Below are positions 1-62,945 of a DNA stretch of 64,000 nt, one piece after another (within the stretch, counting starts at the first letter, position 1; each line of letters starts with the position of its first letter). A program made the translations under genes and the position numbers. Below the pieces are notes generated by a model that worked only from the letters and a program-made list of their open reading frames with translations, was not told the DNA's origin and did not search any database. This DNA is from Elusimicrobiales bacterium (lineage in GTDB: Bacteria > Elusimicrobiota > Elusimicrobia > Elusimicrobiales > UBA9959). The stretch covers positions 10,068 to 74,067 of the forward strand of contig JBAYJD010000002.1 in the NCBI GenBank assembly GCA_041665305.1, written 5' to 3'.

Positions 1-125
1 GATCGTACAGCGTTATGGTGACTTCGGCGTTGTCCGACAGCGTGTAAGCTATAGCCGTCTTGCCTTCCGCCCCGCCTTTTCTCGGGTCGAACGGATTGGG
101 ATAGTTGCGCACATTCGTAAGCACG
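1..125 (-). other. Start of an NYPNPF-type C-terminal beta-sandwich (T9SS type-A CTD or FlgD Ig-like pattern), truncated by the window edge
   Basis: VLTNVRNYPNPFDPRKGGAEGKTAIAYTLSDNAEVTITLYD runs to coordinate 2; NYPNPF is encoded at 89-106. It matches the widely seen consensus NYPNPF(N/D)P...T.I.Y.L.....V.(L/I).(I/L)YD. Such domains are normally the last ~80-100 aa of a protein, so the stop is probably a few tens of codons left of the window. Confidence 0.7.
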
Positions 126-42100: not shown

Positions 42101-45100
42101 AGTGTAGCCCGAACTCCACGGGAAAACGGAGGCGTCGAACGAGAATGTGCCGCTAGACTGGGACGGCGCGTAGGTGAAAGCGGCGGTGGACCAATAAAGT
42201 TCCGGATCGGAAGCGGATTCCCACCGGCGCGCGACGGCGTTCCAGTAAACATTCCCCACGGCCCGGTAGATCCTTATTTTCACGGCCTGGAACGGATCGG
42301 ACAGGTACATCTTCCGGTTATCCGAGGCGGTTCCGGAAACGGCCTGCACCGAATTCTGCGGCTGGGCCGCGGGCAAGGTTATAACGGATATGGGATTCGT
42401 CCTGTCTATGTAAAAGACCGCGGCGGAAGAATCAGGTCCCTGGTTGGCGCCCGTCTGAGTATTGTCCTTCGACCGCGCGCGCGCCGTATAAGTGTACGAA
42501 CTATGCCAGACGGTGTCCGCGAAGCTGTACGACCAGTTCACTGAAACCGCGCTGTAAGTGGAATCCGCCGTGAACCACTGCGAGGAACCGGCGCTCCAGC
42601 CGTTGACCGGGTCCCAGTACCAGTTGTTGCTGTCGCGCTGGAGCGAGATCTCAGAATTGCCTATGGGGATCACGCTGTACAGGTCGGTGGAATTGCCCTC
42701 TATTTTGGAAAGCGACCTGTAGACCGCGGTGTTCTGCGGCGTTGAGAAAGACGAAGAAGGGCCGCTGGTGTCGTATCTGAAGGTCCGAGAGGTATTCTGA
42801 GAAGCGTCCGCGTACCCGAGCACCGCGGGCAGGGCTTCGCTGTTGGAAGCCTTATCGTAGGCGCGGGTGCGCACATTGTAAACCTTGCCGTCAGTCCAGG
42901 CCGGCAGGGTCGAATAGGTCCAGGCGGAAGTGGAAGGCATCACGGCCGTATTAAAATATTCGTCCGTGACCCAGGTGCCGGAAGTAGACCACCAGTGCCA
43001 GTAATAGGTGGTGGCCTGGTTAAGATCGGCTATGGAGATCTCCGTCCGGTCCACGCCGGACAGATTGTCGCCGGCCGTGCCGCTCAGCTGGGTAAGGTCG
43101 TTGTAAGTAACCCCGTGCGCCGGAACGGTTATCCTTGAGGAAGGGTTAGTCTGGTCGAATGTCACGATCACGCCGTCAGTTTCGTCCGCGGCCGCGGTCT
43201 CCACATCGGCGCCGCCGTTATAGGCGCAAAGGCTCCTTATGCGGTAAACCTTGTTATTGGTCCAGGAGAAGCCCACCGTATAGGTGGCGCTATAAACCTT
43301 ATAATTGCCTCCGCCGAAACTTTCAAAGCCGCCCAGGGCCGCGTCGGTCCAGTCCTGTACCACCGTTGAGTCGGTTATATTCTCCACCCTAACCCTGGCC
43401 CAGGCCGGAGCGGCGGTCGAACCGCGGGAAAGTTTAAGATTGATCTCGGGAAGAGCGGTCAGATAAGAGCCGTGCGCCGGATTTGAAACATAGGAATAGG
43501 GCCAGACCCCTTTTTTCATGTAGATCGAGCGCCCGGCGCCGGCGGTTTCAGTCTTGGAAGCGGTCAGGGCCCTGGACCTTATCCGGCCTCTGAAATCTTC
43601 CGCGCCGGTGCCAAAGGCCGGCGGGAGGGCGTTTCCGGAGCAGACGAAATATTCTTTTCCGGAACAGGCGTTCCAGTAGCCGGTATCGCCGGACGCCCAG
43701 GAACCGTTCTCCCAGGTCCTGCCGGCCTGGTCGTATATATTGATCGCCACGGAAGTCACCGGCGTTTCGCCCCAGGCCTCGCCGTGCACAAATCCCAGCC
43801 TGTCGGTATAGGTGGTGTTGTCACCCGCCTGATAATCCCTCAGGTCCAGAAGCTGCGACTGCGGAACCGTGACATCGTACTGAAAAGTGGAAGTGGCAAG
43901 CGTCACATCGTAGTTGAGCGCCTTGTCGCGCGCGCGGGAGACGACCCGGTAATACCTGCCGCTGGTCAGTGTGGAAGGCGGCGCGAACGACCAGTTCCAG
44001 GCGTCGGTCCCGGACGACATGGTCCAGCCCGGGGTGACCCAGGTATTGGGCGTGGAGGTCCAGCCGGAACCTGTCCACCAGTTGTAATCCGCATCGTTAC
44101 CCGTACCCCTGTCTATGATCTGGAGCTGCACTAGATCCAGGCCCGTGCCGGGATACGGGTCCCTGGCCTGCCCGGTAAGATACTGCCATCTGCTTATTTT
44201 GGTCGCGTCCGCCGGGGTAAGCACCGCCGAAGTCGGGAGCTGCACGTCGTACTCGAAATAGTTCTCCACGGACGGGACCTGCTGGTTCAGCGCCGTATCT
44301 TTGGCCTTCACCTGCACCCTGAACCTGTGGCCGGAGCCGCCGTTGGAAAGAAGCGAAAAATTCGGCGTGGAATAGGTCCAGGACCGGCTCAGGTCCCCGG
44401 CTGAGCCCGCGAGGGTGACCGTGCGCCAGAGCGGCGTGCCGCTCTCCTGCCAGGCCGTGCCGTTCCAATAAGTGGTGGGCCATTGCAGCTCCCCGGCCGG
44501 ACCCAGCGCCCGGATCCAGACCTCGACCCCGCCGTTGGGAATGCCGCTTTTATCGTCGGTCGAAGTGCCCTGTATGGAGGCTATGGCATGGTTTGAATTA
44601 TTGTAATAGCCGTTGGCCGCCGGCAGCGAAACGCCGCTGGCGGGGTTCTGGGTGTCGATGGTGAAGGTAACGGTCGTTATAGCCGACTGCCACAACCCCA
44701 CATCGTCGCGCGACCTGGCGCTCAGCCTGTAGGAGGACGACTGCCAGTTGATGCCGCTGTAATAAAAATCGGCGGTTTTGACCGGAAGGTTCTGTAAATC
44801 CTGGGAACTGAACCAGACATCAAAACCGGGATCGTCCTCCCAAAAAGATCCGTTCCAGTACTTGGAACCGGTCGTATCTTTCAGACACAACTCCAGCTTA
44901 TCCAACCCCTGATTATCGGACGCGGTGCCGTAGATATTCCAGGAACCGGCGCTGTACACGCCGCCGTTGGCCGGGAAAGTGGCTATGGCCACGGGAGGCG
45001 TTCTATCGATGGTGAACGCCAGTTTGGGCGTGGAACCCGTATCCAGCGAATTGTTTTGCGCGTTCCCGGCTTTGTCGACCGCCTGCCAGCGGATCTCGTA

Positions 45101-48100
45101 GTTATAGTCGTTGATCAAGCCGGTGGAAAGATTTATGCTCCAGGCATGCTCCCACCTGTTCTGTCCGCCGTTCTCCGTACCGGCGTCAAGAACGGGATTG
45201 AGCGGCGTCTGTCCCCCCCATCCTGATCCGGTGAAGTATTTATCCAATTGCACATTGTAGAGGGACAGGTTGACCTTGTCCATGGAAGTGCCCACCGGGC
45301 TGTAACGGGAAGTATCCCAGGCCGTGCCGGTAATGGAAGAAAGTTCGAAAAGGACCGCCCCGTCGGTCATGCCGGTAACGGCGGCGGTGGGTTTGTCCAC
45401 ATCATACCAGAACTGCTGGGTCGCCACGGAACCCGTATTACCCGCCGGAAGGCTGGAATCCGTGCCGCGCACGCCCAGTTCATATTTCCTGCCGCCGACG
45501 AACGCGGCGGAAGAAATATTCATGCGCCAGGTTCCAGCCGAATAGATGCCGGTATTATAAACCACGGAGTCGGTCCAGGTCCTGGTGGTTTCGTTCCAGT
45601 AGGTCGCCCCGCGGGTCAGGTCCCTTAAACGCACCTCCACCAGCGCGGTGTCGGTATCTATGGTCCCCTGAGCGGTGGTCTGGAGGCCGAGCGGGGCGGA
45701 AAGATACCCAAGCGAAGCCGGCTCCGTTATGACCGCGACGGGCGCCACCCGGTCATAAGTGAACACGGCCGTCGAAAAAGCGGTTTCGTACCTGAGATAA
45801 TCCTTCGCCTGGATATTCACCTGGTACTGGGTGGGCGGCGAACCTACCCAGGCAAAAGCGTCGGTATAAGACCAGTTCGTGGTCCGCAGGGCCAGATCCG
45901 AACCCAGCTCTATCCAGGAGGAAGCCTCGTCGGCTGTAAAATCGTCGGCGGCGGCGTTCCAGTACAGCAGATCGGTGTTGCGCCTGATGCGCACGCGCAG
46001 GGAATCTATCCGGACATTATCGAACGCCGTACCGGAGACGACGGGCAGGGAGGAGTACCTGGACCCATCCGCGGGCGCGGTGCTCCTGGAGACCGGCGCG
46101 CTGGTGTCCCACCAGAAGGTCGCGGTGGAACGGCTGACCTCGGTATTGGGACCGGGGGTCGAGGTAATATCTATGCCGGCGGTGGTGAGGTAATAGGTGG
46201 TACCGTCGGTCATGTCGGCCGGGGCGGGCAGAAGGGTGGTTCTCGACCATAAAACATCCGTCCCTAGCGGCGGCTGAAGATCGTTGGGGCTGAACCACAA
46301 ATTCGGATTTGACGGTATGGGCCCCGGGGTCCAGCCGGCGGAGGTGTCCCAATATTTCTCATCGGAATTCCTCCACAGCACCCATCTGACGCTGTTGATG
46401 CCGCCCCGGCTGTTATCATGCGCCGTACCGCCTATCGCGGTAAGCGAATTTATCACGGCGTTGTTCACGGGAGCCGTAGACTGGGAGCTTGGAGCCGTGG
46501 TATCGTAATAAAACACCGTGGTGGACCAGTTAACGCTGTAACTCCCGGCGGCATCGACCACCCGCCCCCATATCGTATATCTGGAGTTGCTGCTCCAGCC
46601 GGGATTGGTGTAGGTCCAGTTTACCGTCGCCCCCTTGGCTCCGGAGGCGGGACCGGTGGACACCCATTTTGCGTAATTATATTCATCCCCCGTAGCGTAA
46701 ACAGCCCACCCGCCGGGGGTCCAGTACCTGTTATCCGCCCCCTCTTCTTTTATGAAGAGACTGACCCCGTTCTGCGGTATGAACTGGTTGTCCTGCGCCG
46801 TCCCGTATATGTTCCACGCGCCGGCGCCGTACCGGCCGCCGTCCACGGGGGAAGTGGACGCCATGGTCGGAGGGATCTTGTCTATTGTAAATGTCAGACT
46901 GGGGACGCCGGGGTTATCAAGAGAGCCGGTTTCTATATTTCCGGCTTTATCGGCGGCCAGCCAGCGTATTTCGTATGTATAATCGTTTATCCAACCCGTG
47001 GACGGGGTTATCGACCAGGTATGCTCCCACCTGTTCTGGCCCGCATTAAGGGCGCCCGCGTCAAGAGCGACATTAAGCGGCGTTTGCAAGCCCCAGCCGG
47101 AACCCGTAAAATACTGTCCTATCTGCGTGTTGAAGATTGAGATGTTGACATTACCGAGCGATGAACCCACCGGACCGTAGGAGGCGGTCTCCCATGCTGT
47201 ACCGGTAATGGAGGGAAGGCCGGACAAGATCGCGCCGTCCGTTATACCCGTAACGGCGGAAGTGGGTTTATCCACATCATACCAGAACCGCTGGGTGGCG
47301 CTATAGCCGACATTGGCGGAAGGAAGATCCTGGTCGGTGGCGCGCATATAGATCTCGTACTGCTTGCCGCTGACGAACGCGGCGGAGGAGATCTTCATGC
47401 GCCAGTAGCCGGGCGAATAGATCTGCGCCGTGTTCCAGACCGCCGCATTCGTCCATGATTGCGCCGTTTCGTCCCAATAGGTGGTTCCGCGGGTCAGATC
47501 CTGAAGACGCATCTCCACCAGCGCGGTATCGGCGTCGACAGTGCCCTGCATGGTGGTCTGAAGGCCCAACGGCGCCGTGATATATCCCAGCGAAGCCGGC
47601 ACGGTCACGACAGGCACCGGCACGGTGGTATCATAGGTGAAGGTAACAGTGGTATAACTAACCTCATAATGCGGGGCCGGCAGCGTCACCCTGTCTATGG
47701 CCCTGGATTGCATCTCATAACTCGCGCCGTCGCTCCATACGCCGGCGGGCATGATGAGCGCCCAGCCGGTGGTAACATTACCCAGCACCGTACCGTTTAG
47801 AACGCTCGTCCAGGCCGTATTGGCGTTCAGGGAATCGTCGAACTGCTGCGCGCTGTTGTTCCAGTAATAACCGTCGCTCAGCCGTTTTAACCTGAGATAG
47901 ACGGAATTAACGCCGGAAGTCTGGTCCCAGGCCGTGCCGTTAATGGTGGGTATGGAGTTGTAGCGGGCGCCGTTAGCGGGCATGGTGGCGACGCTTATCG
48001 GCGCGGCCCTGTCGCAGATCGCGGTATTTGTGGAATATACCGCCTCAAAATTTTCGTGCGGATACAGCGTATAGTCGCTGGCCTTACCGTAAAAAGCGTA

Positions 48101-49897: not shown

Positions 49898-49935
49898 GAG
49901 CCTTTTGCACTCTGACGACTTTTTGATATTTCCGA

Positions 49936-49985
49936 GAAAAAGACCGTGCGCAACGGATTGCGTTCCGTTTGTCCCGGTCTTTTTC
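49936..49985 (-). terminator. A5-stem-loop-T5 hairpin between the HEAT gene stop and ATG 49897 (terminator or attenuator-like; it would be coding if ATG 50005 is the true start)
   Basis: On the minus strand: GAAAAAGACCG-ggacaaacggaacgcaatccgttgcgca-CGGTCTTTTTC. The outer stem is 11 bp (49936-49946 with 49975-49985), with an inner aacgga/tccgtt pairing and a following T-run. Confidence 0.3.
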
Positions 49986-50036
49986 AGGGCGTCTTTCAGT
50001 TTCATATTAACCGTTGCCGCCGGCCAAGCCGTACGA

Positions 50037-50798
50037 TCACTTTTTTTTCATATGCAGATCGATCCTTGCCTTTACAGCTTTATCCCCGCTGCGCTCCTTT
50101 ATGCCGCGCAATTTGTTTTCTCCATCCTCGGTCCGGCTCAGGGCGTCAAGTATTCCAAGTTTTGCGCCGGGATCCTTTTCAAGGTCGAAATCTTTTGACA
50201 GGGTTTCCGCATCGCCAAGCCTGGATAACGCCATGTAAGCGGCTATCCGCATATCCCTGTCAAGGTCGGTCCCGACTATATCCCGCAGACGCTCCAGCGC
50301 TTTCGGATCATTAAAAAACCCGAGTGAATTGACGGCCTGGATCCGTACGCCTTTATGTTTTTCGACCTTCAGCGCCGCGAGTATCCCGTTAAGCGCGCTC
50401 CGGCCGCCGGTTTTTCTCAACGCCGTTATGGCGCTTGTCCGGCCGCCGGGTTCCGGCTCGCTTATAGCGGCCCGGCTTAAAAACACCACCGCCTCATCGC
50501 TTTGTATCGCGCCCAGTTCCCGGTAAAGTCTTTCCCTGCCCGGAAGCTCTTTTTCCGCTTTGGCCGCTGAGATCTTCCCCTTGACGCCGTTATCAGACGG
50601 CGCCGCGCCAAGCGTCGTTACCGAAAAAATACCGCTGATAAAAACGATCACACAGCACACGGCCGGAAAGACCGTCCTTTCCTTCCTGGTAAAAACGGGC
50701 TCCTCAAAGCCTATATCAGCTTTAAAAAGTTCGCTAAATACGGTCCTTCTTGATTCAGCCATATAATTACCCGGCATAAGCGGATATAGCTCCGGCAC
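50037..50798 (-). CDS. Membrane-anchored HEAT-repeat (PBS-lyase HEAT-like) protein
   Basis: Track ORF of 253 aa with one TM segment (FPAVCCVIVFISGIFSVTTLG). HEAT-like repeats follow: AITALRKTGGRSALNGILAALKVEKHKGVRIQAVNSLGFFNDPKALERLRDIVGTDLDRDMRIAAYMALSRLGD. The listed start is GTG 50798; ATGs at 50777 and 50762 are alternatives. The stop is 140 nt upstream of ATG 49897. Confidence 0.75.
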   Translation of the reverse strand: MPELYPLMPGNYMAESRRTVFSELFKADIGFEEPVFTRKERTVFPAVCCVIVFISGIFSVTTLGAAPSDNGVKGKISAAKAEKELPGRERLYRELGAIQSDEAVVFLSRAAISEPEPGGRTSAITALRKTGGRSALNGILAALKVEKHKGVRIQAVNSLGFFNDPKALERLRDIVGTDLDRDMRIAAYMALSRLGDAETLSKDFDLEKDPGAKLGILDALSRTEDGENKLRGIKERSGDKAVKARIDLHMKKK

Positions 50799-51102: not shown

Positions 51103-51287
51103 ATAAAAAACCGCTTCAGCGTTCTTCGTTCCCATACAGGGCTACCGCTCCGAAGACAGCCAAAACGGCCGACCGCGACAAATCAGTTTTGATCTTCGGC
51201 AGCCTGACCCCCGCGTATATAGCGGGTCTTAGCTTTGCGCCGCCGGCTTTCGCCGGCTTTGCTATTATCGTGACATACGAACTTCGC
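51103..51287 (-). ncRNA. sRNA-like transcription unit A (~185 nt), family unknown
   Basis: It is bounded by a consensus promoter (51294-51321) and a long terminator hairpin with a T-run. The hairpin arms are 51151-51168 and 51111-51128, paired with G-U wobbles, and the A-run on plus is 51103-51110. Internal hairpins are gccggc-GAAA-gccggc and cccgc-tatatac-gcggg. There is no plausible ORF (only ATG-TCA-CGA-TAA). Confidence 0.45.
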
Positions 51288-51634: not shown

Positions 51635-51640
51635 GAATAT

Positions 51641-51668
51641 ATTATAGCAGAAATACAAATATTGTCAA
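51641..51668 (-). promoter_or_regulatory. Consensus sigma70-type promoter with extended -10 (unit B)
   Basis: Minus strand: TTGACA (51668-51663), a 16-nt spacer atatttgtatttcTGc, then TATAAT (51646-51641). It begins 35 nt after the S41-like gene stop. Confidence 0.65.
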
Positions 51669-51702: not shown

Positions 51703-52842
51703 TCACTTCTTGGCGGCCGCAATAACCCCCATCGCTTTCTCATAGGCCGGATCGTCGAGCAGGGCCGTTTCGCCGGAGGCCGTCCAGGCGCGTTTAAACT
51801 CTTCCGCTTGGGCCGCCGACAGCCCGACCCTTAGATCAGGCTCCACTCCGAGATCCTCCAGCGCTTTCCCTGAGGGAGGGAACAACCTGGCTATGGTAAG
51901 CCTGATACCCTTCCCGCCCGGACCGAGGCTGAATGTTTTTTGCAGGGAAACGCCGCCCCGCGTGGTTTCGCCGATTATCTTCGCGCCGCGCAGTTCGCGC
52001 AGCGCCTGCGCGAACGCTTCCGCCGCCATGGCCGTGCCGGAATTGACCAGCACAAAGGGCTTAAGGGCGGCGAACCGCCCCCTGCCTGCGGCTTCAAAAA
52101 GCCTGGAGTAGCCTTTATGCCGGGATCTGAGCTCCAACACCGGGCCGGCCCCGGCGGCGAGGTCCTTTAAAAGCGCGGCGGCCTCGTCAGGCACTCCGCC
52201 GGAATCCCTCAGGTCGAAGACCACCCTTTTGGCGCCTAATCCGGACAGCGTATCCAGCCCCGCCGCGGCAATGGCGCCGGAGCCTTCGAAGAACATTCCT
52301 ATCCTGACAAAAGCAGTGGCGGTATCGGGCAGATAAAAGCCGAAGATCAAGGGGAAGGCGAACAATTCCTTTTTAAGTTTTACCGTTATCACACCGGCCC
52401 CGCCGGGAGCGCCTCGTTCTATCTTCAGACCGAACCCCGCGCCTGCGCGCAGGCCCGAAACCGCTTGGAGGTCGGCCTTACGGCCGTCAATTTCCAGCAC
52501 CCTGTCCCCATCCCGCAAACCGACCGCCGCGCCCGGAGAGCCCCTGAACACTTTGGCAAGGTAAAAGCCGCCGCGCCGTTCTTCCAAAAGCAGACCGGAG
52601 GAGAGGGCGCCTCCGCCGGGAAGCTCCTTAAATTTTTTCCCGGCCGCGACGATCTCCGCATGCCGGTCCAGGATCTTAAGGCCTTCCACGCCTTTGGAGA
52701 GCAGCAGTTCCCTGATCCGCCGGGGAGCGTGCGCCTCATAACTATGCTTTTCGAACACTTTAACGATGTCCGGCGCCATATCCTTATCCACGCAGGCCGC
52801 GCAGGCGGCAAGACAGACCAGCGGCAGGAAAATTTTATTCAT
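51703..52842 (-). CDS. S41 (C-terminal processing peptidase)-like lipoprotein with PDZ domain; catalytic dyad apparently substituted
   Basis: Track ORF of 379 aa. A lipoprotein-type signal is present (MNKIFLPLVCLAACAAC). A PDZ-like segment follows (GGFYLAKVFRGSPGAAVGLRDGDRVLEIDG). The S41 core motif DLR.N.GG reads DLRDSGGVP. The Ser motif G(S/T)ASASE reads GTAMAAE (52018-52038), and the Lys motif TFGKG reads TRGGV (51949-51963). Confidence 0.8.
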   Translation of the reverse strand: MNKIFLPLVCLAACAACVDKDMAPDIVKVFEKHSYEAHAPRRIRELLLSKGVEGLKILDRHAEIVAAGKKFKELPGGGALSSGLLLEERRGGFYLAKVFRGSPGAAVGLRDGDRVLEIDGRKADLQAVSGLRAGAGFGLKIERGAPGGAGVITVKLKKELFAFPLIFGFYLPDTATAFVRIGMFFEGSGAIAAAGLDTLSGLGAKRVVFDLRDSGGVPDEAAALLKDLAAGAGPVLELRSRHKGYSRLFEAAGRGRFAALKPFVLVNSGTAMAAEAFAQALRELRGAKIIGETTRGGVSLQKTFSLGPGGKGIRLTIARLFPPSGKALEDLGVEPDLRVGLSAAQAEEFKRAWTASGETALLDDPAYEKAMGVIAAAKK

Positions 52843-54188
52843 ATTCGATCGGCTCCGGATACGGGAAAATCGCCGGACGCGCCGCCGGCGTTATAACCGG
52901 GCGAGCAGGGATCGGTGGGCAGAAAAGGCCCGTACTCGGGGCACTGTTGAGCGTTGAGAGAATTGGGAGGCAGGCAGCAGCAGGGCGCCTTGGCCGTGCA
53001 GCCGCATTCCGCGCCGTAACCCTCGGTCGCGACATAGTCCTCCAGGCCGATATTCTGCAGGGTCTGCGCTGCGTCCGGATCGGCAAAACCTCCGCTCTCG
53101 GCCTTGTCCGCCGAGGCGCCGTCGCCGGCGCCCCCCGACCCCGTAAACGGTCCCAGGGGAGTGAACAGCGCCTTGGCCAGGCTCCGGCTTGCTTTTTTAT
53201 CCTGGTAGTCTTTATCCCCTTTCAGCGATTCTTTGGTGCCTTCCGCGTCCAGTTCCGGCTTGCCGACGGCGGAAACACCGAGCGTCCGGGCGTCGGAGGC
53301 GTTCAGGTCCTGCTCTCTCAGGAACTTGGGGATGGACCTGGGATCCACGCGGTCCAGTTTGGCCTTGACTTTCTCATCGTACACCAAAGAATAGGCGGCG
53401 TCGGAGTTGGCGTCGAAAGTTTTGGCTATCCAGCCCCTGGCCGCGTCCTGGGAGGCCAGGCGCGCGCCGTAGAGATTGGCTTTGAAGGCGCTTTTTAACG
53501 CCTCCATCACGGAAACCTTCGGCCCCCCGGCGGCGCCGCCCGGCGCGCCGCTTTTGGACTGCGCGAGCCGGGCCGGAGCATTGCCCTTCGTCTCTTCCGG
53601 TCTCAGCTCCGCCGTGCCGGAGGTCCGACCGCCGTTCAGCCGGCCGAGGGTTATCTCTTTGACCAGAAGTTTGCCGTCCGACCCGGACCTCGGGGCCTGG
53701 GAATGCGCTACAAAGCCGCCCGCGCCCGAAGACGGGTCCCCGGTTCCGGCCCCGCCCGCAGGACCGGCGGTTCCCGGGGCAGCCGCGCCGGACGCGCCGG
53801 CGGAACCGTCAAGAAGTTCTTTTTTAAGCGCCGGGTCGGCTTTCGCCAGTTCTTCTTCCGAAGCGAAAAATTCTCCTTCCTTTTCAGCTTTGGCCGCCGG
53901 TCCGGACCCAGGCGCGGCGCTATTGGCGCTCAGTTGGTTATAATTGCCGCCGCCCGCCAGTTTATCGGCGGCGTTTTTCATGGCGACCCAAGCCACGAAG
54001 CCTCCCACGGACAGGAAAACCAGCACGAGCGCGAGCCCCGTCCACTTATAGCTTCCGGGGCCCTTCGGGAGGAAAAAAGAAGCCCGGGAACCGCGGTCCT
54101 CATCGCTTTTATTTTCGCCGGTCATAGGTTGGTCCGCAAGGAAACGGCAGTCCTGCGGGTTCGGGGTCCTATCAGCCATGGGACCCAT
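52839..54188 (-). CDS. Single-pass membrane protein, Gly/Ala/Ser-rich, with a Cys-rich C-terminus (function unknown)
   Basis: Track ORF of 449 aa with TM segment WTGLALVLVFLSVGGFVAWVAM. The C-terminus is ECGCTAKAPCCCLPPNSLNAQQCPEYGPFLPTDPCSPG. Its stop overlaps the S41-like start by 4 nt (52839-52842), suggesting translational coupling. The true start may be ATG 54125. Confidence 0.6.
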   Translation of the reverse strand: MGPMADRTPNPQDCRFLADQPMTGENKSDEDRGSRASFFLPKGPGSYKWTGLALVLVFLSVGGFVAWVAMKNAADKLAGGGNYNQLSANSAAPGSGPAAKAEKEGEFFASEEELAKADPALKKELLDGSAGASGAAAPGTAGPAGGAGTGDPSSGAGGFVAHSQAPRSGSDGKLLVKEITLGRLNGGRTSGTAELRPEETKGNAPARLAQSKSGAPGGAAGGPKVSVMEALKSAFKANLYGARLASQDAARGWIAKTFDANSDAAYSLVYDEKVKAKLDRVDPRSIPKFLREQDLNASDARTLGVSAVGKPELDAEGTKESLKGDKDYQDKKASRSLAKALFTPLGPFTGSGGAGDGASADKAESGGFADPDAAQTLQNIGLEDYVATEGYGAECGCTAKAPCCCLPPNSLNAQQCPEYGPFLPTDPCSPGYNAGGASGDFPVSGADRI

Positions 54189-54491: not shown

Positions 54492-55115
54492 CTACTTCAA
54501 TCCCGGCAGCACGAACTGTATCGGCCTGTCCCGACTGGGCACATATTTAATGACTTCGAGCTGTTTTCCGCCGGCACAAAGATAGTCGTAGCCGTTGTTG
54601 CAGGCCGCGCCGTAAGGTTCGGCGCAAACCACCTGTTTGGGATACTTGCACAGCATCCCTATACCGGCGGGATCGGTCTCCACCGTCACCGTGACCACAT
54701 TCCAGACCTGCGTCCGCACGACCTCCAGCTTAAGCGTGCGGAGGTTCAGGAATTTCTTGACCGAGGGGGTGTTGAAACCGATATAATCTTTGACCTTCTC
54801 CTCTATATCCTTTCTAAGCCAGGGATCGTCCCAGCTTGCGGCGAAATCGGCGTTAAGATGCGATTCCAGCTGCCAGCGGCGGGCCGCGTAATAAGAGCCT
54901 ATCTCCATTTTCTGCACCAGCACCAGCAGTGCGAACATCTTGGCCGTGATAAAGACCACCAGCATGAAAAGCGGGAACAACAAAACGACTTCGGTCATCG
55001 CCTGCCCGCGCCTGCGGCGGGACCCGCCCGGAAGAGAGGAACGACGGGGAAAAATAAAATACAAAGCGGAAACGCACCGCCTCTTGATATTCTCAACAAC
55101 TCCACTGGCTCTCAT
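54492..55115 (-). CDS. TadE-like pseudopilin
   Basis: The N-terminus MRASGVVENIKRRCVSALYFIFPRRSSLPGGSRRRRGQAMTEVVLLFPLFMLVVFI fits the TadE pattern G-x-x-x-x-E-x-x-L-x-x-P plus a hydrophobic helix. I prefer ATG 55115, which is preceded by gggagaagagaggaataca, over the track's 55232 start, which overlaps the upstream gene. Confidence 0.6.
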   Translation of the reverse strand: MRASGVVENIKRRCVSALYFIFPRRSSLPGGSRRRRGQAMTEVVLLFPLFMLVVFITAKMFALLVLVQKMEIGSYYAARRWQLESHLNADFAASWDDPWLRKDIEEKVKDYIGFNTPSVKKFLNLRTLKLEVVRTQVWNVVTVTVETDPAGIGMLCKYPKQVVCAEPYGAACNNGYDYLCAGGKQLEVIKYVPSRDRPIQFVLPGLK

Positions 55116-55153
55116 TGTATTCCTCTCTTCTCCCGGCGCCCGCGGTTCCAGCC

Positions 55154-56368
55154 TCACGGATAGAGCCGGGTCTGATATTTCGGCGTGGGATCGGGCCACA
55201 CGCAATTGTTGCCGGAGGTCAATTGGGGGCACTGGCTGGCCACCAGGGCATGCACGCAGGGGCGCCCCGTTTCCTGGCAGGCCGCCTTGCCTTTGAAATC
55301 GACGCCGAAATAATTGGAAGGCGCGTTCCAGCCCTGGTAAACATGATAACCCGGGTTACCCACGGTCTTCAAAGCGCCGTCGCTGAAGGTGGCCAGCTGG
55401 AAAAGCCCCGGGGCGGGCATCTGCAGCGGAGGATTGGTCTTACCCAGAAAATACGGCGGCAGGCCCGACTGCGGCACCTTGGCGTGGAAAATTATTTTAT
55501 CCACATACCACATGAACATGCCTGCGCCGCGGGTGATCCTGTTGGCCCGGAAACCCCCGGGGCTCCTGACGCCGTCTTCGCCGCAGAGCGCCGGATTATC
55601 CACGCATTCCTGCGTATTGGCGTTCAGGTAATATGATTTCCTGAAAAAATTAAAATTCTCGGTAAGCCGCTCGAACACCGTCATCTGGGATTCCTCCACC
55701 GCGCCCAGCATGGTGTAAACCTGGGCGTAGAACTTATAGATGCCTATGGCCGGGTCCCAGAAAATATAGATCTTGATGCCCTGGTCGGCGTTTATCAGCA
55801 TCAGGGTATCCTCGGGAGCGGGGGGGTTTTTGTTCATCTGGGGCCGGACGGCCTCGTTAAAAGCGATCTCCCACTTGGATTTATTGTCCAGCGGGGTGGC
55901 GTCCTTGAACTCCTCGTCGTCCTTGTATTTCGGGATGTCGCCCGCGTCGTAAAGCATCTTATAGGTGCAGACCGTGCCCGTCTCGTCGGTCTTTTTCATG
56001 CAGTTTTCTTCCGTCCCCGTGGTACACCCCGCCGTGCATTCATAGGCTTCCTTGAAGATCCTGTACGGGAACGCGCCGTTGACATAAGCCGTGCGGTTAA
56101 GGATGTTGGTATAGTCTCCCATCTGGATGAAGGCCGCCGAATCCAGCGCGAACTGCTGGCGGATCTTTTCCCTGGAGATCTTAGTGGTCTCGAACAGGAG
56201 GTAGATAAAAAGCATGAGCGACGGGATGATAAGGATGGAAGGGATCAGGATCTGCCCCCGCCTGCGGCCGGGGCGGATCGGGTCGGGCGACGAACAGGCA
56301 AAAGAAAAGAACGAAGCGGCGGTATGCCGCCTCCAGGTCTTCTCAACGAGTCCCCTGTATCCCGCCAT
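55154..56368 (-). CDS. Large TadG/TadE-N-like pseudopilin-like protein, Cys-rich
   Basis: The N-terminus ..RPGRRRGQILIPSILIIPSLMLFIYLLFETTK resembles the Tad_N/TadG pattern (RRG plus a hydrophobic helix). About 340 aa of Cys-containing extracytoplasmic sequence follow. ATG 56368 is preceded by ggagagaagaat; the track's GTG 56386 is the alternative. Confidence 0.5.
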   Translation of the reverse strand: MAGYRGLVEKTWRRHTAASFFSFACSSPDPIRPGRRRGQILIPSILIIPSLMLFIYLLFETTKISREKIRQQFALDSAAFIQMGDYTNILNRTAYVNGAFPYRIFKEAYECTAGCTTGTEENCMKKTDETGTVCTYKMLYDAGDIPKYKDDEEFKDATPLDNKSKWEIAFNEAVRPQMNKNPPAPEDTLMLINADQGIKIYIFWDPAIGIYKFYAQVYTMLGAVEESQMTVFERLTENFNFFRKSYYLNANTQECVDNPALCGEDGVRSPGGFRANRITRGAGMFMWYVDKIIFHAKVPQSGLPPYFLGKTNPPLQMPAPGLFQLATFSDGALKTVGNPGYHVYQGWNAPSNYFGVDFKGKAACQETGRPCVHALVASQCPQLTSGNNCVWPDPTPKYQTRLYP

Positions 56369-56417
56369 ATTCTTCTCTCCGCCCACGCCCCGCGGGCCTG
56401 TCGCCGGCGCTCCGCCG

Positions 56418-56660
56418 TTACGGCGCCGCCGCCGGTTTACTGGAGCCTATCACCATCCCGACCAGGCTGAACATTCCGCCAAGAAGTTTTTTATGGAAAA
56501 GTATGCCGACTATCAGCGTAAGCCCCACCACCACGGACAGCATAAGAAGATACTCGACGGTGGTCTGCCCTTTGCGTCCCGGCCGGAAAGGACGCCCGGA
56601 AAGCCATAAGCCATAGGCCATAGGCTTTAAAAAATATAAAAAGCCGATCGCAGAATTCAT
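56418..56660 (-). CDS. flp: Flp-family (Tad/type IVc) prepilin
   Basis: 80 aa: MNSAIGFLYFLKPMAYGLWLSGRPFRPGRKG/QTTVEYLLMLSVVVGLTLIVGILF.. The G/xTxVEY processing motif followed by a hydrophobic helix is the Flp hallmark (compare G/ATAIEYGLI). An RBS, aggggatataaATG, is present. Confidence 0.7.
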   Translation of the reverse strand: MNSAIGFLYFLKPMAYGLWLSGRPFRPGRKGQTTVEYLLMLSVVVGLTLIVGILFHKKLLGGMFSLVGMVIGSSKPAAAP

Positions 56661-56828: not shown

Positions 56829-56863
56829 CAGTAAAAATTTTTGCGGCAAAAATTTTTAATCAC
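56819..56863. repeat. 45-bp A5T5-GCGGC-A5T5 element, copy 2
   Basis: aagggcggggcagtaaaaatttttgcggcaaaaatttttaatcac. It overlaps the RR stop codon (56860-62) and one arm of its terminator. Confidence 0.7.
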
Positions 56864-57531
56864 TGACCTTCGTGCGAGATAAGGCCCTTTTCCAGAGCCT
56901 TCACCACGGCTTCGGTCCTGTTGTTGACGGCGAGTTTCTGGAAAATGCTGTTGAGATGATTTTTAACGGTCTTTACGCTGCATTCGAGCGCGGTGGCGAT
57001 CTCCTTGTTGGAGTTGCCTTTGCCCAGCAGGGACATGACCCTGATCTCGGTGGAGGTCAGGGAATCGGGAGCGTTCTCGTAGCCGGGCTGCCCCATCTGC
57101 CTTAAACCCTGGATCAGCTTGCCCATGATGGGCTGGGGGATCATAACGCCGTCGGTGGTAAAGGTCTTGAGGGCGTGCACGAGCTCGGAAGCGGGCAGCA
57201 TTTTTGAAAGATAGCCGTTGGCCCCGGCCTGGATGGCGTCGGTCACATGCGCTTCGTCCTCGTAACTGGAGAGGATCAGGACATTAGTATTGGGGCATTC
57301 TTTTCTGATGATCCGGGTGGCTGAAACGCCGTCCATCTGGGGAAGCTTTATGTCCATAAGGATCACATCAGGCTTGAGTTTCCTGGCCATGGCGACGACT
57401 TCCGGGCCATTGGAGGCTTCGCCCACCACGACGATGCCTTTCTCATCTTCCAGCAGGTCCTTGATACCTTCCCTGAAAAGGGTCTGGTCGTCCGCGATCA
57501 AAACCGACACTGTTTTTTTGGGGGTGGCCAT
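56860..57531 (-). CDS. NarL/FixJ-family response regulator (REC + LuxR-type HTH)
   Basis: 223 aa. Receiver landmarks are VLIADDQ, VILMDIKLPQMDG and LILSSY. The C-terminal HTH is LTSTEIRVMSLLGKGNSNKEIATALECSVKTVKNHLNSIFQKL. An RBS, AGGAG, lies 6 nt before the ATG. Confidence 0.9.
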   Translation of the reverse strand: MATPKKTVSVLIADDQTLFREGIKDLLEDEKGIVVVGEASNGPEVVAMARKLKPDVILMDIKLPQMDGVSATRIIRKECPNTNVLILSSYEDEAHVTDAIQAGANGYLSKMLPASELVHALKTFTTDGVMIPQPIMGKLIQGLRQMGQPGYENAPDSLTSTEIRVMSLLGKGNSNKEIATALECSVKTVKNHLNSIFQKLAVNNRTEAVVKALEKGLISHEGQ

Positions 57532-57568
57532 TCTAAGCTCCTTATTTTATATCTCCGCGCTATCTAAG

Positions 57569-57597
57569 ATTATACCTGATTATACGACGCTTGTTAA
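57569..57597 (-). promoter_or_regulatory. Candidate sigma70 promoter for the NarL-type RR
   Basis: Minus strand: TTAACA (57597-57592), a 17-nt spacer, then TATAAT (57574-57569). A second TATAAT lies at 57584-57579. Confidence 0.55.
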
Positions 57598-57603
57598 AAT
57601 AAT

Positions 57604-58767
57604 TTACACCGGGCTTTCCGGTCCGGCCGAAGCGGCGCCGGGCGGCGGCTCCTTGGCGAACGGAATTGTGAATTTAAAAGAGGAGCCCTTGCCCGCGCCT
57701 TCAGACTCCACCCAGATCCGGCCTTCGTGGTTGTGGATGATCTCCTTTGAGATCGAAAGGCCGAGGCCCAGCCGCCCGTGCGGAGATTTGCCGCCGGCCG
57801 GCTGATAGAAGCTTTGGAAAAGCTTGGTCAGTTCCGCCGGATCTATGCCTTCGCCGGTATCTTTTACGGATACGCAGACCGAGTCTTCAAGGCGTTCCAC
57901 AAAAACCATTATACTGCCGCCTCTCGAGGTGTGCCGGATCGCGTTCTCAAGCAGGTTCATCAGGACCTGGCTGATCCTGCGCTTATCCGCGCACACCATT
58001 TTAAGCCCTTCCTTATTGATCCTTGCGTCTATGGAAATATTCTTCTGCTGGGCCCTGGCCTTCGGCCCCACGATGATCTCGTCCACCATTTTATCCATCT
58101 CAAAATAATTCTTTTCCATGCGCAGCTTGCCCTGCTCGATGGAAGCCCAGTCCACCAGGTCGCCTATAAGACGGGAGATCTGGGAGATGCTGGTATTGAT
58201 GAAGGTCATCTTCTTGCCCTGGTCGTCGTTGGGCGTGATGGTGGCGGCGAGCATCTCGAAACTGATCTGCAGGGTCATCAGGGCGTTAGAGAGATCGTGC
58301 GAGGCCATGGACATGAATTTGGATTTCATCCCGTTCAAACGGTCCAGTTCCTCGTTGTTATGCTTGAGCATGTCGATGAGGCGCTTGTTTTCCTGTTCCA
58401 GGAAAAGCTTCTCCTCGGCTTTCTTGATGGCGCGGCGCAGATAATTGAAATCCACCGGCTTTATCAGGAAATCGTAAACCGACTCCTGGATGGCTTTGAC
58501 CGCGGTGTCGAGCGAAGCGTGGGCGGTCATCATCAGGATCTGGCTGTCGGTATTGAGTTTGCGTATGTCCTTTATAACTTCGATGCCGGTCTTGTCGGTG
58601 AGGTTGAAGTCCATCAGGATGATATGGTAAAAATCGGAAACGACCCGTTTCATGGCTTCGGCGCCGGAACCGGCCTCGAATACCTTATAGCCTTCCATCT
58701 CCAGCAGGTCGCGCAGGGTTTCCCGCAGATGTGCGTCGTCGTCGACTATCAGGATCTTGCTTTCCAT
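57604..58767 (-). CDS. Soluble hybrid REC-HisKA-HATPase histidine kinase
   Basis: 387 aa. The N-terminal receiver shows ILIVDDDAHL, IILMDFNLTDKTG, MMTAH and LIKPV. The H-box is FMSMASHDLSNAL. The ATPase motifs are NLLENAIRHT, DTGEGI and GLGLSISKEII. Confidence 0.9.
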   Translation of the reverse strand: MESKILIVDDDAHLRETLRDLLEMEGYKVFEAGSGAEAMKRVVSDFYHIILMDFNLTDKTGIEVIKDIRKLNTDSQILMMTAHASLDTAVKAIQESVYDFLIKPVDFNYLRRAIKKAEEKLFLEQENKRLIDMLKHNNEELDRLNGMKSKFMSMASHDLSNALMTLQISFEMLAATITPNDDQGKKMTFINTSISQISRLIGDLVDWASIEQGKLRMEKNYFEMDKMVDEIIVGPKARAQQKNISIDARINKEGLKMVCADKRRISQVLMNLLENAIRHTSRGGSIMVFVERLEDSVCVSVKDTGEGIDPAELTKLFQSFYQPAGGKSPHGRLGLGLSISKEIIHNHEGRIWVESEGAGKGSSFKFTIPFAKEPPPGAASAGPESPV

Positions 58768-58869
58768 AGGGGCGGCTGCGGGTCGAAGGGTAATGAACGC
58801 CGGAACTTTTTAACTCCCTGGCTTCCGGCTTTACCGGACTCCCCGACTCCCGAATGCACCGTTACATTC

Positions 58870-60750
58870 TCACTTATTTTGGTTATTGGACACAAGTGGG
58901 AGGAACAGCTTAAAGCAGGTGCCTTGGCCCACCACGCTGGAAACTTCGACGCGCCCCTTATGCCGGTCGGTTATTTTTTTAACCACCGCAAGCCCCAGGC
59001 CGGTGCCCCGGGCTTTTGTCGTGAAGAAAGGCGCGAAGATCTTTTCCAGGGTCTCTTTCGGAATGCCGGGGCCGGCGTCCTCCACATCGATGCGGACCGC
59101 CTCGCCCGTCACCTCGGTGCGCACGGAGATCCTGCCCCGTTCGGGCATGACCTCGATGCCGTTCTTTATAAGGTTCCTGACGGCCTGCGTCATCTCGTCG
59201 GTATCGATGTTGACCGTGGGATTTTCCGGAGCCAATCTTTTTACCAGTTCGATATGCGGCGGGAACGGGAAGGACATAAGCAGGTCCTCCATGTACGCGT
59301 TCAGGTGCGTCAGCTTGGGATTAAGCTCGCGCGTGCGGGCGAAACCCAGGATCTCGTCGATAATGCCGTTGGCCTGGCGGATCTCAGATTCGATGATGGA
59401 GATGTGCTTGGCCACCTTCGGATCCAGGGGCGTGGCGGCGGCGTTCACTTTGGTCTTTATGAAATAGATGGAGTTGTTGATCACGGCCAGCGGATTCCTG
59501 ATCTCGTGGCCTACGACGGAGGCCATCTGGCCTATGGCGGCGAGCCGCTCTTTTTTGATAAGTTCGTCCTGTGCGGACTTAAGCTCCCTGGTGCGCGCTT
59601 CGACGCGGTTCTCAAGGCTGCGGTTGAGCTTTTCCAGCTCTTCCTTGGCCGACATGATCTCAGCGGTCTTCACCTTCAGGGATTCGCTCATCTGCATGAA
59701 GGTGTGGGCCAGTTCGCCTATTTCGTCGTTGGGCATGCTGAGGTCGGGCAGGTAATCGAAATCCCCCTCGCCCAGCTTGATGGCGGCTTCGCGCAGCGCC
59801 TGGATGGGCTGCGTTATGACCAGCGACACGGCGTAACCCAGGAAAAGGACGAACACGGTGACAAGAAGCATCATGCGCCAGGTGCGCTGAAGCATCTCGT
59901 TCGAGGCCTGGTAAGCCACGGAGACCGAGCGCTGGATGTAAACCACCCACCCCAGGTCGGAAACCTCCGCGAAAGCGCCCAGAACCTTCTCCCCGGTATC
60001 CAGGATTATCTCCCCCCCTCCGGTCTTGGCGTCGTTCTGGAGAAGGATCTTAAGGATATCCTCCGGCAGTTTGGCGTCCGGTTTGTAGATCTCCTTAAGA
60101 TTGGAGTGCGCTATCAGGAAACCGTTGGAATCTATCACCGCCGCCTGCGTATGGGTGGCCTCGGGGAAACCGGTCTTCAGGATGCTGGAAAGGCCGGTGA
60201 GGCTCATTTTGGCGATCAGCACCCCCATCCCCTGGTTCGTGGTGGAACTGACGATCTGCACGCCCATGGTTATGGCCGGATAGGACCCCATGTACTTCTC
60301 AAGCCCGCCTACGAACTCGCCGGTCTTCATAACCTTGCCGAACAGGACATCGTTGGAAAAATCGCGCAATTTCGTATCGCGCACGAAACGGCCCACGCGC
60401 ACGGTCTCGTGCCCGCCGGCGTTGATGACGGAAAGCTCAAGGAACGGGGCGTGCAGCTGCATGATATGGTTGATCAGGGCCTGCTGCTTGCCCGCGTTCA
60501 TGGAGGCGAAATCCTCCAGATGGGCCGCGTCGAAAAGGACATTGCGGAAGTTGGTGATGTAGCTGGAAACGGTGTCCGAGAAACCCACGGCCAGGGCCTC
60601 CTGGTCGCGGGAAATGGCCCTGTTAAGCGTCACCTGGCTCAGGGTCAGGAGGTAATACCCCACTATGCCGAGCGGCACGAGCGAAACGATAAGGAACACG
60701 AAAAGGAATTTGTAAAAAAGTCTTCCGCGTTTTTTGGGAGCTTCGGTCAT
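58870..60750 (-). CDS. Membrane sensor histidine kinase (TM, ~270-aa extracytoplasmic domain, TM, HAMP, HisKA, HATPase)
   Basis: 626 aa. The TM segments are FLFVFLIVSLVPLGIVGYYLL and MMLLVTVFVLFLGYAVSLVI. HAMP is ITQPIQALREAAIKLGEGDF...IGELAHTFMQM. The H-box is VGHEIRNPL. The ATPase motifs are NLIKNGIE, DAGPGIP and GTGLGLAVV. Confidence 0.9.
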   Translation of the reverse strand: MTEAPKKRGRLFYKFLFVFLIVSLVPLGIVGYYLLTLSQVTLNRAISRDQEALAVGFSDTVSSYITNFRNVLFDAAHLEDFASMNAGKQQALINHIMQLHAPFLELSVINAGGHETVRVGRFVRDTKLRDFSNDVLFGKVMKTGEFVGGLEKYMGSYPAITMGVQIVSSTTNQGMGVLIAKMSLTGLSSILKTGFPEATHTQAAVIDSNGFLIAHSNLKEIYKPDAKLPEDILKILLQNDAKTGGGEIILDTGEKVLGAFAEVSDLGWVVYIQRSVSVAYQASNEMLQRTWRMMLLVTVFVLFLGYAVSLVITQPIQALREAAIKLGEGDFDYLPDLSMPNDEIGELAHTFMQMSESLKVKTAEIMSAKEELEKLNRSLENRVEARTRELKSAQDELIKKERLAAIGQMASVVGHEIRNPLAVINNSIYFIKTKVNAAATPLDPKVAKHISIIESEIRQANGIIDEILGFARTRELNPKLTHLNAYMEDLLMSFPFPPHIELVKRLAPENPTVNIDTDEMTQAVRNLIKNGIEVMPERGRISVRTEVTGEAVRIDVEDAGPGIPKETLEKIFAPFFTTKARGTGLGLAVVKKITDRHKGRVEVSSVVGQGTCFKLFLPLVSNNQNK

Positions 60751-60818
60751 AAGATCAGGCGACGATTAAAGAATAAAGTGCGCGGCGCAAAGAGCGAACC
60801 CGGATAGAACGGGAGCCG

Positions 60819-62511: not shown

Positions 62512-62567
62512 TATTGCTCTCCGGTTTTTAGATGCCGCTTGGGAACGCCTAACGCGCTGAAGGGGCG

Positions 62568-62945
62568 TTATTTGCCTTTCCTCTTTAAAAGCTGGCGAAT
62601 GCGCAGGCACAGTTCCTGGATATCGAAAGGTTTGGTCAGATATTCATCCGCGCCGAGAGAAAAACCCTGCGTTTTTTCTTCTGCGGACAGGAAGCGGCCC
62701 GTCATCATGATAAGGATGAAGTCCTTGGAATGGCGTCTCAGCTCCTGACAGATCTGAAAACCGCTGGAATCCGGAAGCTGGATATCCATGATCACCACAT
62801 CGGGACCGTGTTTCTTGGCCGCATCGATGCCGGCTTTGGCGTTGCCGGCTTCGAGGCAGACAAAGCCTTCGAGGTCAAGGACCTCGGCGAGGCTTTCCCT
62901 CAGGTGCGCGTCGTCGTCGATTACCAGGATCTTTTGTGCGGCCAT
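62568..62945 (-). CDS. CheY-like single-domain response regulator
   Basis: 125 aa with canonical receiver residues: ILVIDDDAHL, VVIMDIQLPDSSG, IMMTG and LTKPF. Confidence 0.9.
   Translation of the reverse strand: MAAQKILVIDDDAHLRESLAEVLDLEGFVCLEAGNAKAGIDAAKKHGPDVVIMDIQLPDSSGFQICQELRRHSKDFILIMMTGRFLSAEEKTQGFSLGADEYLTKPFDIQELCLRIRQLLKRKGK

Follow-up and report, generated by a model that had tools for sequence, protein, structure and literature searches.

Carboxyl-terminal processing proteases of the CtpA type (CtpA, CtpB and D1P; MEROPS S41A; PDB IDs 9jr1, 8sxe, 4c2c and 1fc6) are exported proteins with N-terminal helices, a PDZ domain ahead of the protease core, a DLRxxGG motif, a helix carrying the motif G(S/T)AxxxE, and a PPSG motif. 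In S41 enzymes, the PDZ domain binds the C-terminus of the substrate, whose chain is then placed in the cleft beside the DLRxxGG strand. Here we describe an S41-like gene (51703..52842, minus strand) in a 64,000-nucleotide stretch of DNA from an Elusimicrobiales bacterium (GenBank assembly GCA_041665305.1, contig JBAYJD010000002.1, positions 10,068 to 74,067), which we refer to as the window. The 379-residue product shares all of the above motifs with CtpA, CtpB and D1P, together with their domain order, their fold and, probably, their export. Unlike these enzymes, however, it carries methionine in place of the nucleophile serine and glycine in place of the general-base lysine, it has an SRHxGY loop and a lipobox, and its gene always lies behind the gene of a specific membrane protein.

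A catalytically dead S41 domain is already known as a concept. IRBP (retinol-binding protein 3; PDB IDs 9frx and 7jti) is a vertebrate protein of S41 descent in which the serine was lost and binding became the function (PMC10120077); its S41 core is kept, and the catalytic serine is replaced in most of its modules. However, IRBP is eukaryotic, consists of four tandem modules without a PDZ domain and binds retinoids and fatty acids, whereas the S41-like protein is bacterial and has a single module with a PDZ domain. The S41-like protein does not belong to the IRBP family, and because IRBP is eukaryotic and lacks the PDZ domain, the catalytic losses in the two families are independent. The present case is bacterial, keeps the PDZ domain and comes with a candidate partner. 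A literature search found no description of a bacterial CtpA-type pseudo-protease or of the present gene cluster, which is weak evidence given the incomplete coverage of the search.

Another comparison is offered by Prc-NlpI and CtpA-LbcA (PDB IDs 5wql and 8sxe), in which an S41-fold protein of the cell envelope works together with a partner of its own, either a helical-repeat protein or a lipoprotein. The locus in the window shares this theme, and a HEAT-repeat gene often lies just downstream of the S41-like gene. In those complexes, however, proteolytic activity resides in the S41 component and the lipoprotein serves as its adaptor, whereas here the S41-fold protein itself appears to be an inactive lipoprotein. 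Moreover, the constant partner here is a single-pass membrane protein without tetratricopeptide repeats.

The S41-like protein and its fold

An identical protein was predicted for the open reading frame 51703-52842 by the JGI and NCBI gene callers on independent contigs. Its assignment as an S41/CtpA-like pseudo-protease draws on the open reading frame, on Pfam, on a family profile, on an AlphaFold2 model and on a Foldseek comparison of that model. The Pfam family Peptidase_S41 (PF03572) matched residues 177-339 (E = 2.3e-24, 86.3 bits against a cutoff of 24), and matches to PDZ_6, PDZ and PDZ_2 were found at residues 85-124, all under the Pfam cutoffs. The NCBIfam models CtpA, CtpB, CtpC, CtpZ and TIGR00225 (prc) were tried for membership at their curated cutoffs, and none was reached. 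The scores were 95.8 bits against 218.6 for TIGR00225, 82 against 633 for CtpB and 67 against 625 for CtpA, so far below the cutoffs as to suggest that the S41-like protein is a divergent relative and not a CtpA orthologue.

The protein and 66 orthologues form a family of 67 sequences with 39-71% identity, to which all orthologue counts below refer. A profile of this family matched Helicobacter pylori CtpA (E = 9e-45) and Bacillus subtilis CtpB (E = 8e-35) in alignments that were collinear over residues 23-344 and spanned the whole PDZ domain. The AlphaFold2 model had a mean predicted local distance difference test score (pLDDT) of 92.9, exceeding 90 in the PDZ region, and a predicted template modelling score of 0.89. 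The best Foldseek matches of the model were CtpA, D1P and CtpB, with E-values of about 1e-25. The S41-like protein belongs to peptidase family S41 by homology and fold, and it has the CtpA-type architecture with the PDZ domain between the N-terminal helices and the core.

From the N-terminus, the protein consists of a lipobox region, N-terminal helices, the PDZ domain, the S41 core and C-terminal helices. A signal peptide with a lipobox spans residues 1-17 (52792..52842, minus strand). Cys17 is near-invariant, being kept in at least 90% of the orthologues, and an LAAC motif also ends at Cys14. The pattern [LVA][ASG][GAS]C is present in most full-length representatives of the wider clade described below, and the protein is therefore probably exported and lipidated, as far as can be judged from such a pattern. 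The PDZ domain covers approximately residues 79-160 (52363..52608, minus strand), with SSGLL as the equivalent of the carboxylate-binding loop (SPGAAVGLRDGDRVLEIDG), and its residues G83, L85, F99 and D113 are invariant in the family. The former protease core, approximately residues 161-340 (51823..52362, minus strand), is the most conserved region. It contains the S41 scaffold and cleft motif DLRDSGG at residues 210-216 (52195..52215, minus strand), of which D210, R212, G215 and G216 are invariant in the 67 sequences and present in every control S41 domain considered below. The family-specific loop SRHKGY occupies residues 240-245 (52108..52125, minus strand). Its residues S240, R241, H242, G244 and Y245 are conserved in at least 90% of the family, whereas generic S41 proteins lack the loop.

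Both residues of the catalytic dyad are replaced

The nucleophile serine of S41 enzymes stands at the start of the active-site helix (PMC10120077). In the AlphaFold2 model of the S41-like protein, the helix of residues 272-285 begins at Met272, within the motif GTA-M-AAE (residues 269-275; 52018..52038, minus strand), which aligns with GSA-S-ASE of CtpA and CtpB. Further along the chain, TRG-G-VSLQ (51940..51963, minus strand; TRGGV is residues 294-298, 51949-51963) aligns with TFG-K-GSVQ and places Gly297 at the general-base lysine and Gln301 at the third position of the triad.

The register of this alignment was checked in three ways. With the single sequence as query, phmmer aligned residues 45-339 to H. 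pylori CtpA in the PDB. The motifs of the wild-type enzyme (GSASASE and TFGKGSVQ), of its mutant 9ku3 (GSAAASE and TFGAGSVA) and of the query (GTAMAAE and TRGGVSLQ) fell in the same columns, so that the mutations S300A, K325A and Q329A of 9ku3 landed on the columns of M272, G297 and Q301. In the family-profile alignment, wild-type CtpB (4c2c) and its S309A mutant (4c2g) differed at the column where the family has methionine; the identities of the mutants 9ku3 and 4c2g were taken from the Foldseek entry titles. As a positive control, we turned to an exhaustive profile search, run against 1.84 billion representative sequences, and read the same three states of the profile hidden Markov model in the 130 unrelated S41 domains that it supplied. 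Serine and lysine were both present in 114 of the 130, and serine, lysine and glutamine in 109. Lysine occurred in 117 controls, namely these 114 together with the third stretch of P0189 (Ala, Lys and Gln at the three sites), P0200 and P0264, which lack the serine. Because the control domains show serine and lysine at the same states, the register is not an artefact of alignment by eye. All three alignments concur that Met272 occupies the nucleophile site, Gly297 the general-base site and Gln301 the third site. Gln301 matches Q338 of CtpB and Q329 of CtpA, a correspondence that is meaningless without the serine and the lysine.

As judged from these alignments, the protein lacks both the serine and the lysine of a competent S41 peptidase. 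A preliminary description of the stretch had recognized the lipoprotein signal, the PDZ domain and the DLRDSGG core, and had proposed that the serine was replaced in GTA-M-AAE (52018-52038) and the lysine in TRG-G-V (51949-51963). Its coordinates proved exact, and homology, the lipobox pattern and the profile and fold alignments agree with the architecture. The comparison with CtpA and CtpB likewise placed methionine and glycine at the serine and lysine positions, in agreement with the serine-to-alanine and lysine-to-alanine mutants.

Orthologues and the wider clade

Serine was found at the nucleophile column in none of the 67 orthologues; the column holds methionine in 58, arginine in 5 and lysine in 4. 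The lysine column is variable, with Ser in 18, Asp in 18, Asn in 11, Arg in 10, Gly in 5, Glu in 3 and Lys in 2. The glutamine column drifts as well (Gln, Thr and Val in 17 each, and others). Unlike these two drifting sites, the nucleophile site is restricted to the long unbranched side chains of methionine, arginine and lysine, so that it looks like a filled pocket rather than a neutral site. The substitutions are thus shared among orthologues, as the preliminary description had left to be checked. Wherever the organism of a family member is named, it is an Elusimicrobia metagenome-assembled genome.

The exhaustive search also delineated a wider clade of 34 representatives at 50% clustering, of which the 67-member family is the tip. 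The representatives scored 134-548 bits and are alike in their length of about 375 residues, in the lipobox at their N-terminus and in having an "HSY" helix and the loop motif S...Y. Serine and lysine were both retained in only two of the 34 (P0177 and P0188), compared with 114 of the 130 controls. Serine was lost in 17 and lysine in 29, and a recurrent pattern is retention of the serine with lysine replaced by asparagine or aspartate. The named members of the clade are all Elusimicrobiales, annotated as "S41 family peptidase" or "CtpA/Prc", and all eight matches in reference genomes are from Elusimicrobiota. The retention of serine, with or without lysine, in part of the clade implies that some relatives may still be enzymes. 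The alignments extend the loss of catalytic residues to a whole Elusimicrobiales clade, which is under purifying selection.

Since the defining catalytic features are missing, it would be wrong to catalogue the S41-like protein as a peptidase. The public labels "S41 family peptidase", "carboxyl-terminal processing protease" and "CtpA/Prc" are very probably wrong as an enzymatic claim throughout the clade, and this mislabelling is of consequence for catalogues of metabolism and proteases in Elusimicrobia.

Dyad-less S41 domains also occurred outside the Elusimicrobia clade, in P0162, P0185, P0186, P0189, P0193, P0200, P0203, P0218, P0223, P0246 and P0264. They are sporadic among the controls (about 13 of 130), and several are extra copies in tandem multi-S41 proteins. 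Their occurrence there suggests that the phenomenon is probably common but unremarked, and that inactive S41 domains are probably under-recognized in bacteria.

Conservation and selection

The reading frame was intact in all 67 orthologues and in the 34 clade representatives. Nei-Gojobori ratios of nonsynonymous to synonymous substitution (dN/dS) were 0.13-0.26 for pairs with unsaturated dS (0.12-0.84), and 28 alignment columns were invariant across the 67 sequences. Mean column entropy was 1.15 bits in the core, 1.64 in the PDZ domain and about 1.9 at the termini, and 55 of the 180 core columns were conserved in at least 90% of the sequences. The S41 motifs kept in the core include DLRDxGG, T270, E275, S299 and PPSG. 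The S41-like protein and its membrane partner, at 40-68% identity, have diverged faster than the neighbouring regulators, which are 82-96% identical.

These data also dispose of the reading that the gene is decaying, or an annotation artefact, and has no function. The loss of catalytic residues and the faster evolution relative to the neighbouring regulators would fit such a gene, but the intact frames, the low dN/dS, the invariant columns, the confident fold and the conserved operon position refute it, and we regard it as hardly credible. A pseudogene was likewise rejected on the dN/dS and conservation values.

A membrane-protein gene is the constant neighbour

The start codon of the S41-like gene overlaps the stop codon of the upstream open reading frame by 4 nucleotides (ATGA, 52839-52842), which confirms the translational coupling to a Cys-rich membrane protein noted in the preliminary description. 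The upstream gene (52839..54188, minus strand) encodes a single-pass membrane protein, in which a disordered linker and, at the C-terminus, a Cys-rich module were recognized. It has 449 residues as read from the open reading frame, but probably 428 as judged from the start of P0071. Its sequence matches NCBI WCW52_00525 [Elusimicrobiales bacterium] with 100% identity, which identifies the source as an Elusimicrobiales metagenome-assembled genome, and it had no match in Pfam or NCBIfam. We found 80 homologues, which are from Elusimicrobia wherever the source names the organism. The AlphaFold2 model shows a transmembrane helix at residues 47-78, with the remainder largely disordered (pLDDT 56.8). 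The C-terminal stretch of about 60 residues forms a conserved Cys-rich module, GYGAECGCTxxAPCCCLPPN...CPxYGPFLPxDPC, without a database family.

A homologue of this partner lies directly upstream of the S41-like gene in 14 of 14 loci, including the distant loci L017, where the rest of the context differs, and L018. P0165, a distant member with Leu, Asn and Thr at the triad sites, is encoded in the same operon as in the window. P0177, which keeps the serine and the lysine, is encoded in a different context, yet right behind a partner homologue (E = 4e-73 to the partner profile). This persistence of the pairing in a different context indicates that the invariant unit is the two-gene pair.

Partner tails ending in Ala, Val or Ile were found in 34 of 67 cases, with the recurring endings -(L/M)PA, -TMWV and -AFA. 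A tail of the same type is present in the CtpB-peptide crystal 4c2g, whose title gives a Val-Pro-Ala C-terminus. Nonpolar partner tails as the ligand of the S41-like protein are only suggestive on these sequences. A conserved partner tail that would serve as a clean PDZ ligand was sought and found only in part, since the tails are heterogeneous.

Proposed function and alternatives

We favour the reading, with somewhat better than even confidence, that the protein is a CtpA-descended periplasmic lipoprotein serving as a non-catalytic peptide-binding subunit that acts with the upstream membrane partner. Its ancestor would have been a C-terminal processing protease of the CtpA type, of which the whole fold and the cleft-forming motifs were retained. 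With the Ser/Lys(/Gln) machinery lost, the protein cannot hydrolyse peptide bonds by the S41 mechanism, and purifying selection would maintain it as a binding subunit. It would pair in fixed stoichiometry with the single-pass membrane protein whose gene lies just upstream. An extended peptide, possibly the partner's exposed and often nonpolar C-terminal tail, would be held uncut in the PDZ domain and the dead cleft. The pair may span the envelope as a scaffold or adaptor, in an Flp/TadE/TadG-like cluster that is specific to Elusimicrobia and governed by a two-component system. A role in C-terminus recognition or as a chaperone is plausible from the retained PDZ domain, the cleft motifs and the often nonpolar partner tails. 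What such a dead tail-specific protease binds is a directly testable question, as it concerns two small proteins with an obvious candidate partner.

Several observations weigh against this reading. Homology, fold, the clade-wide loss of catalytic residues, selection and the conserved gene pair are shown by the data, but that the protein binds a peptide, which ligand this is and that it acts as a scaffold are what we infer, and the same is true of complex formation. The Pfam scores of the PDZ domain are sub-threshold, and the assignment as a lipoprotein is a sequence pattern. The low-confidence model of the partner allows no interface to be proposed. Its tail is not conserved, with subgroups ending in -MAGQ, -GxxN and -GGSW and the partner in the window ending in -GADRI. 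Finally, P0177 and P0188 keep both serine and lysine, and 17 of the 34 clade representatives keep the serine.

A different role, which we consider unlikely, is that of a regulator or decoy of a real protease, either an FtsH-like protein encoded in the operon or a canonical CtpA elsewhere. By analogy with pseudoenzymes that control active relatives, the S41-like protein might form mixed oligomers with it, or present or withhold its substrates. Six loci do carry, two genes upstream, an FtsH-like gene whose Walker motifs and HEAGH are intact, CtpA and CtpB are oligomeric according to the titles of 9ksp, 9kub and 8sxe, and the model still has the helices on either side of the core, at the N- and C-termini. 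However, the S41-like gene is kept without the FtsH-like gene in the window and in L006, L007, L008, L010 and L014, and the catalytic domains of FtsH are cytoplasmic whereas the S41-like protein is probably exported. Furthermore, none of the loci examined showed a canonical S41 gene, and the invariant neighbour is a membrane protein and not a protease. A small hydrophobic ligand such as a lipid, isoprenoid or fatty acid, bound in the manner of IRBP for transport or sensing in the envelope, appears improbable. It is true that IRBP was the top PDB match of the single sequence (E = 1.3e-22), that the former nucleophile site now takes a methionine or another long aliphatic side chain, and that IRBP is an established non-catalytic S41 descendant (PMC10120077). 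The family profile, however, ranks CtpA and CtpB above IRBP by 14 and 4 orders of magnitude, respectively, the S41-like protein keeps the hallmark residues of a PDZ domain that IRBP modules lack, and the strict pairing with a membrane-protein gene points to a protein partner.

Still slightly less probable is that the protein has remained a hydrolase with a non-canonical site, for example Ser240/His242 or Thr270. These three residues are invariant or conserved in at least 90% of the family, the conservation of the core exceeds what is expected of a mere scaffold, and the original serine occurs together with His242 in 17 of the 34 clade representatives. On the other hand, normal S41 enzymes conserve T270 and S299 just as strongly without using them in catalysis, and the placement of S240 and H242, two residues apart within a single loop, matches no known catalytic geometry. 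The original nucleophile is methionine, arginine or lysine throughout the 67-member subfamily, and 9ku3 and 4c2g were constructed as inactive mutants. We know of no S41 protein that is active without the Ser/Lys dyad.

A bolder version of the peptide-binding reading, which we put forward only as speculation and consider about as unlikely as the regulator, is that an old and diversified pair forms a new kind of envelope-spanning tether throughout Elusimicrobiales. The dead protease would clamp the partner tail permanently and couple the inner-membrane anchor to the outer membrane, in the service of a minimal Flp/TadE/TadG pseudopilus or of the display of a giant adhesin under cyclic di-GMP (c-di-GMP) control. 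In a variant of this idea, the sister subclade that retains the serine would have re-wired catalysis to a Ser-His pair via His242.

The surrounding gene cluster

On the minus strand, the S41-like gene is preceded by genes for a DsbA-like protein, a histidine kinase, a receiver-kinase hybrid, a LuxR-type regulator, an Flp-type prepilin, a TadG-like protein, a TadE-like protein and the membrane partner, in that order. The gene order was identical in all 11 independent loci with enough upstream flank. The block is headed by a 543-residue protein (60979..62610, minus strand) with a weakly DsbA-like C-terminal region (Pfam DSBA, E = 0.0037, under the cutoff), the gene of which is syntenic in 10 loci. 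It is followed by genes, identified with Pfam, for a dCache-HAMP histidine kinase (58870-60750, minus strand), the receiver-kinase hybrid (57604-58767, minus strand) and the LuxR-type response regulator (56860-57531, minus strand). Wherever the flank is long enough, these two-component genes (56860..60750) keep their synteny, with 82-96% identity.

The Flp-type prepilin (56418..56660, minus strand) has 80 residues and contains ...GRKGQTTVEYLLML... (GRKGQTTVEY...). Its match to Class_IIIsignal (E = 8.5e-5) reached 22.8 bits against a cutoff of 23.7, which the orthologue in L006 clears with 24.5 bits; the synteny of the gene is conserved. The TadG-like protein (55154..56386, minus strand) is Cys-rich with an N-terminal transmembrane segment and matched Pfam Tad very weakly (E = 0.31). 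Its gene is syntenic at 61-84% identity, and the protein ends in the invariant tail NNCVWPxPTPKYQTRLYP. The gene of the TadE-like pseudopilin (54492..55232, minus strand) also has conserved synteny. Its true start is probably internal, since orthologues have about 194 residues. The Pfam TadE match was sub-cutoff both in the window (E = 0.011) and for the L001 orthologue (4e-4), and the C-terminal tail, ...KYVPNRDRPIQFVLPGLK, is invariant. The TadG-like and TadE-like tails were invariant even in the distant L018, and such tails are candidate alternative ligands for the S41-like protein. The presence of a Cys-rich partner, a Cys-rich TadG-like protein and a DsbA-like protein suggests disulfide-rich extracytoplasmic components.

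The Flp-, TadG- and TadE-like set was conserved in the window and in L001, L003, L005-L011, L014 and L018. Tad/Flp (type IVc) clusters likewise combine an Flp-type prepilin with TadE-like and TadG-like genes in one operon. Unlike those clusters, however, the conserved block lacks the CpaF/TadA ATPase, TadB/C, the RcpA secretin and the TadV prepilin peptidase, none of which was found in the 50-64 kb part of the window or in the 10-kb upstream flanks of the orthologous loci. The surrounding operon is thus not a Tad/Flp pilus system, and to our knowledge Tad clusters do not include an S41-like protein.

In L001 (6908-8533), L003, L005, L009, L011 and L013, a gene for an FtsH-like AAA+/M41 protein of about 540 residues is inserted ahead of the membrane-protein gene; it was not present in the window or in L006, L007, L008, L010 and L014. 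The protein has two N-terminal transmembrane segments with a short loop between them, and its Walker A and B motifs and HEAGH are intact. Two plus-strand open reading frames opposite the kinase and DsbA-like genes (57778-60807, 1009 residues; 60868-62748, 626 residues) had no Pfam match and are almost certainly shadow frames in GC-rich DNA. The plus-strand frames across 1-48 kb, also without a Pfam match, were treated as shadows of the giant gene described below.

The downstream regulatory region and the giant gene

The gap of about 900 bp beyond the stop codon of the S41-like gene is a regulatory region. A promoter scan found seven sites where 0.9 ± 0.8 were expected, two of them perfect. The promoter-like element P1 (51641..51668, minus strand), TTGACA-16-TG-TATAAT, is of the sigma-70 type with an extended -10 element, scores 12/12 and stands just past the stop codon; its sequence is invariant in the window, L003, L005 and L006. 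The element P2 (51294..51321, minus strand), also 12/12, lies ahead of a c-di-GMP-I riboswitch aptamer (51195..51273, minus strand; Rfam RF01051, 59.5 bits against a gathering threshold of 35, E = 4e-9), and a terminator-like hairpin with a T-run is found at approximately 51108-51172 (minus strand). An Rfam scan covered seven orthologous loci, and the same arrangement of riboswitch, HEAT-repeat gene and giant open reading frame was found in L003, L005 and L010.

The HEAT-repeat protein (50037..50798, minus strand; 253 residues; Pfam HEAT_2, E = 7.7e-15) has an N-terminal hydrophobic segment, and HEAT_2 genes lie downstream of the S41-like gene in L001, L003 and L005. Beyond it, a giant secreted protein is encoded at 2..50047 (minus strand) by at least 16,682 codons, as the open frame leaves the left edge of the window. 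It has the signal-like N-terminus MLPFSAKRLLLPFVAVLWFMGG and Ig-like domains (Big_7 and Big_13), and its C-terminus, with any sorting domain, lies beyond the window. The giant genes in L003 and L005 encode 14,428 and 14,856 residues. The giant surface protein is probably under c-di-GMP control, as suggested by the aptamer match.

The giant gene adjoins the S41-like gene in 5 of the 13 loci with readable downstream sequence (the window, L003, L005, L010 and L013), and other genes lie downstream in L001, L006, L007, L008 and L014. The position of P1 after the stop codon, the riboswitch and this variable adjacency indicate that the S41-like gene closes its own operon, and that the giant gene, though often adjacent, is not a necessary neighbour and is probably controlled separately through c-di-GMP. 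We therefore rejected the giant protein as a required partner. The pseudo-protease reading of the preliminary description thus stands as regards the loss of the dyad, its sharing among orthologues and the coupling to the membrane protein, whereas the link that it drew to the giant protein is not supported, as that gene belongs to a separate unit behind two perfect promoters and a riboswitch.

Behind P1, within approximately 51419-51668 (minus strand), a stretch of about 230 nucleotides is predicted to fold into a 12-bp stem followed by a long, terminator-like hairpin with six U residues (folding z-score -2.6). This structured RNA, which has no Rfam family and which the window has in common with L006 only, may be a small RNA or an undescribed leader.

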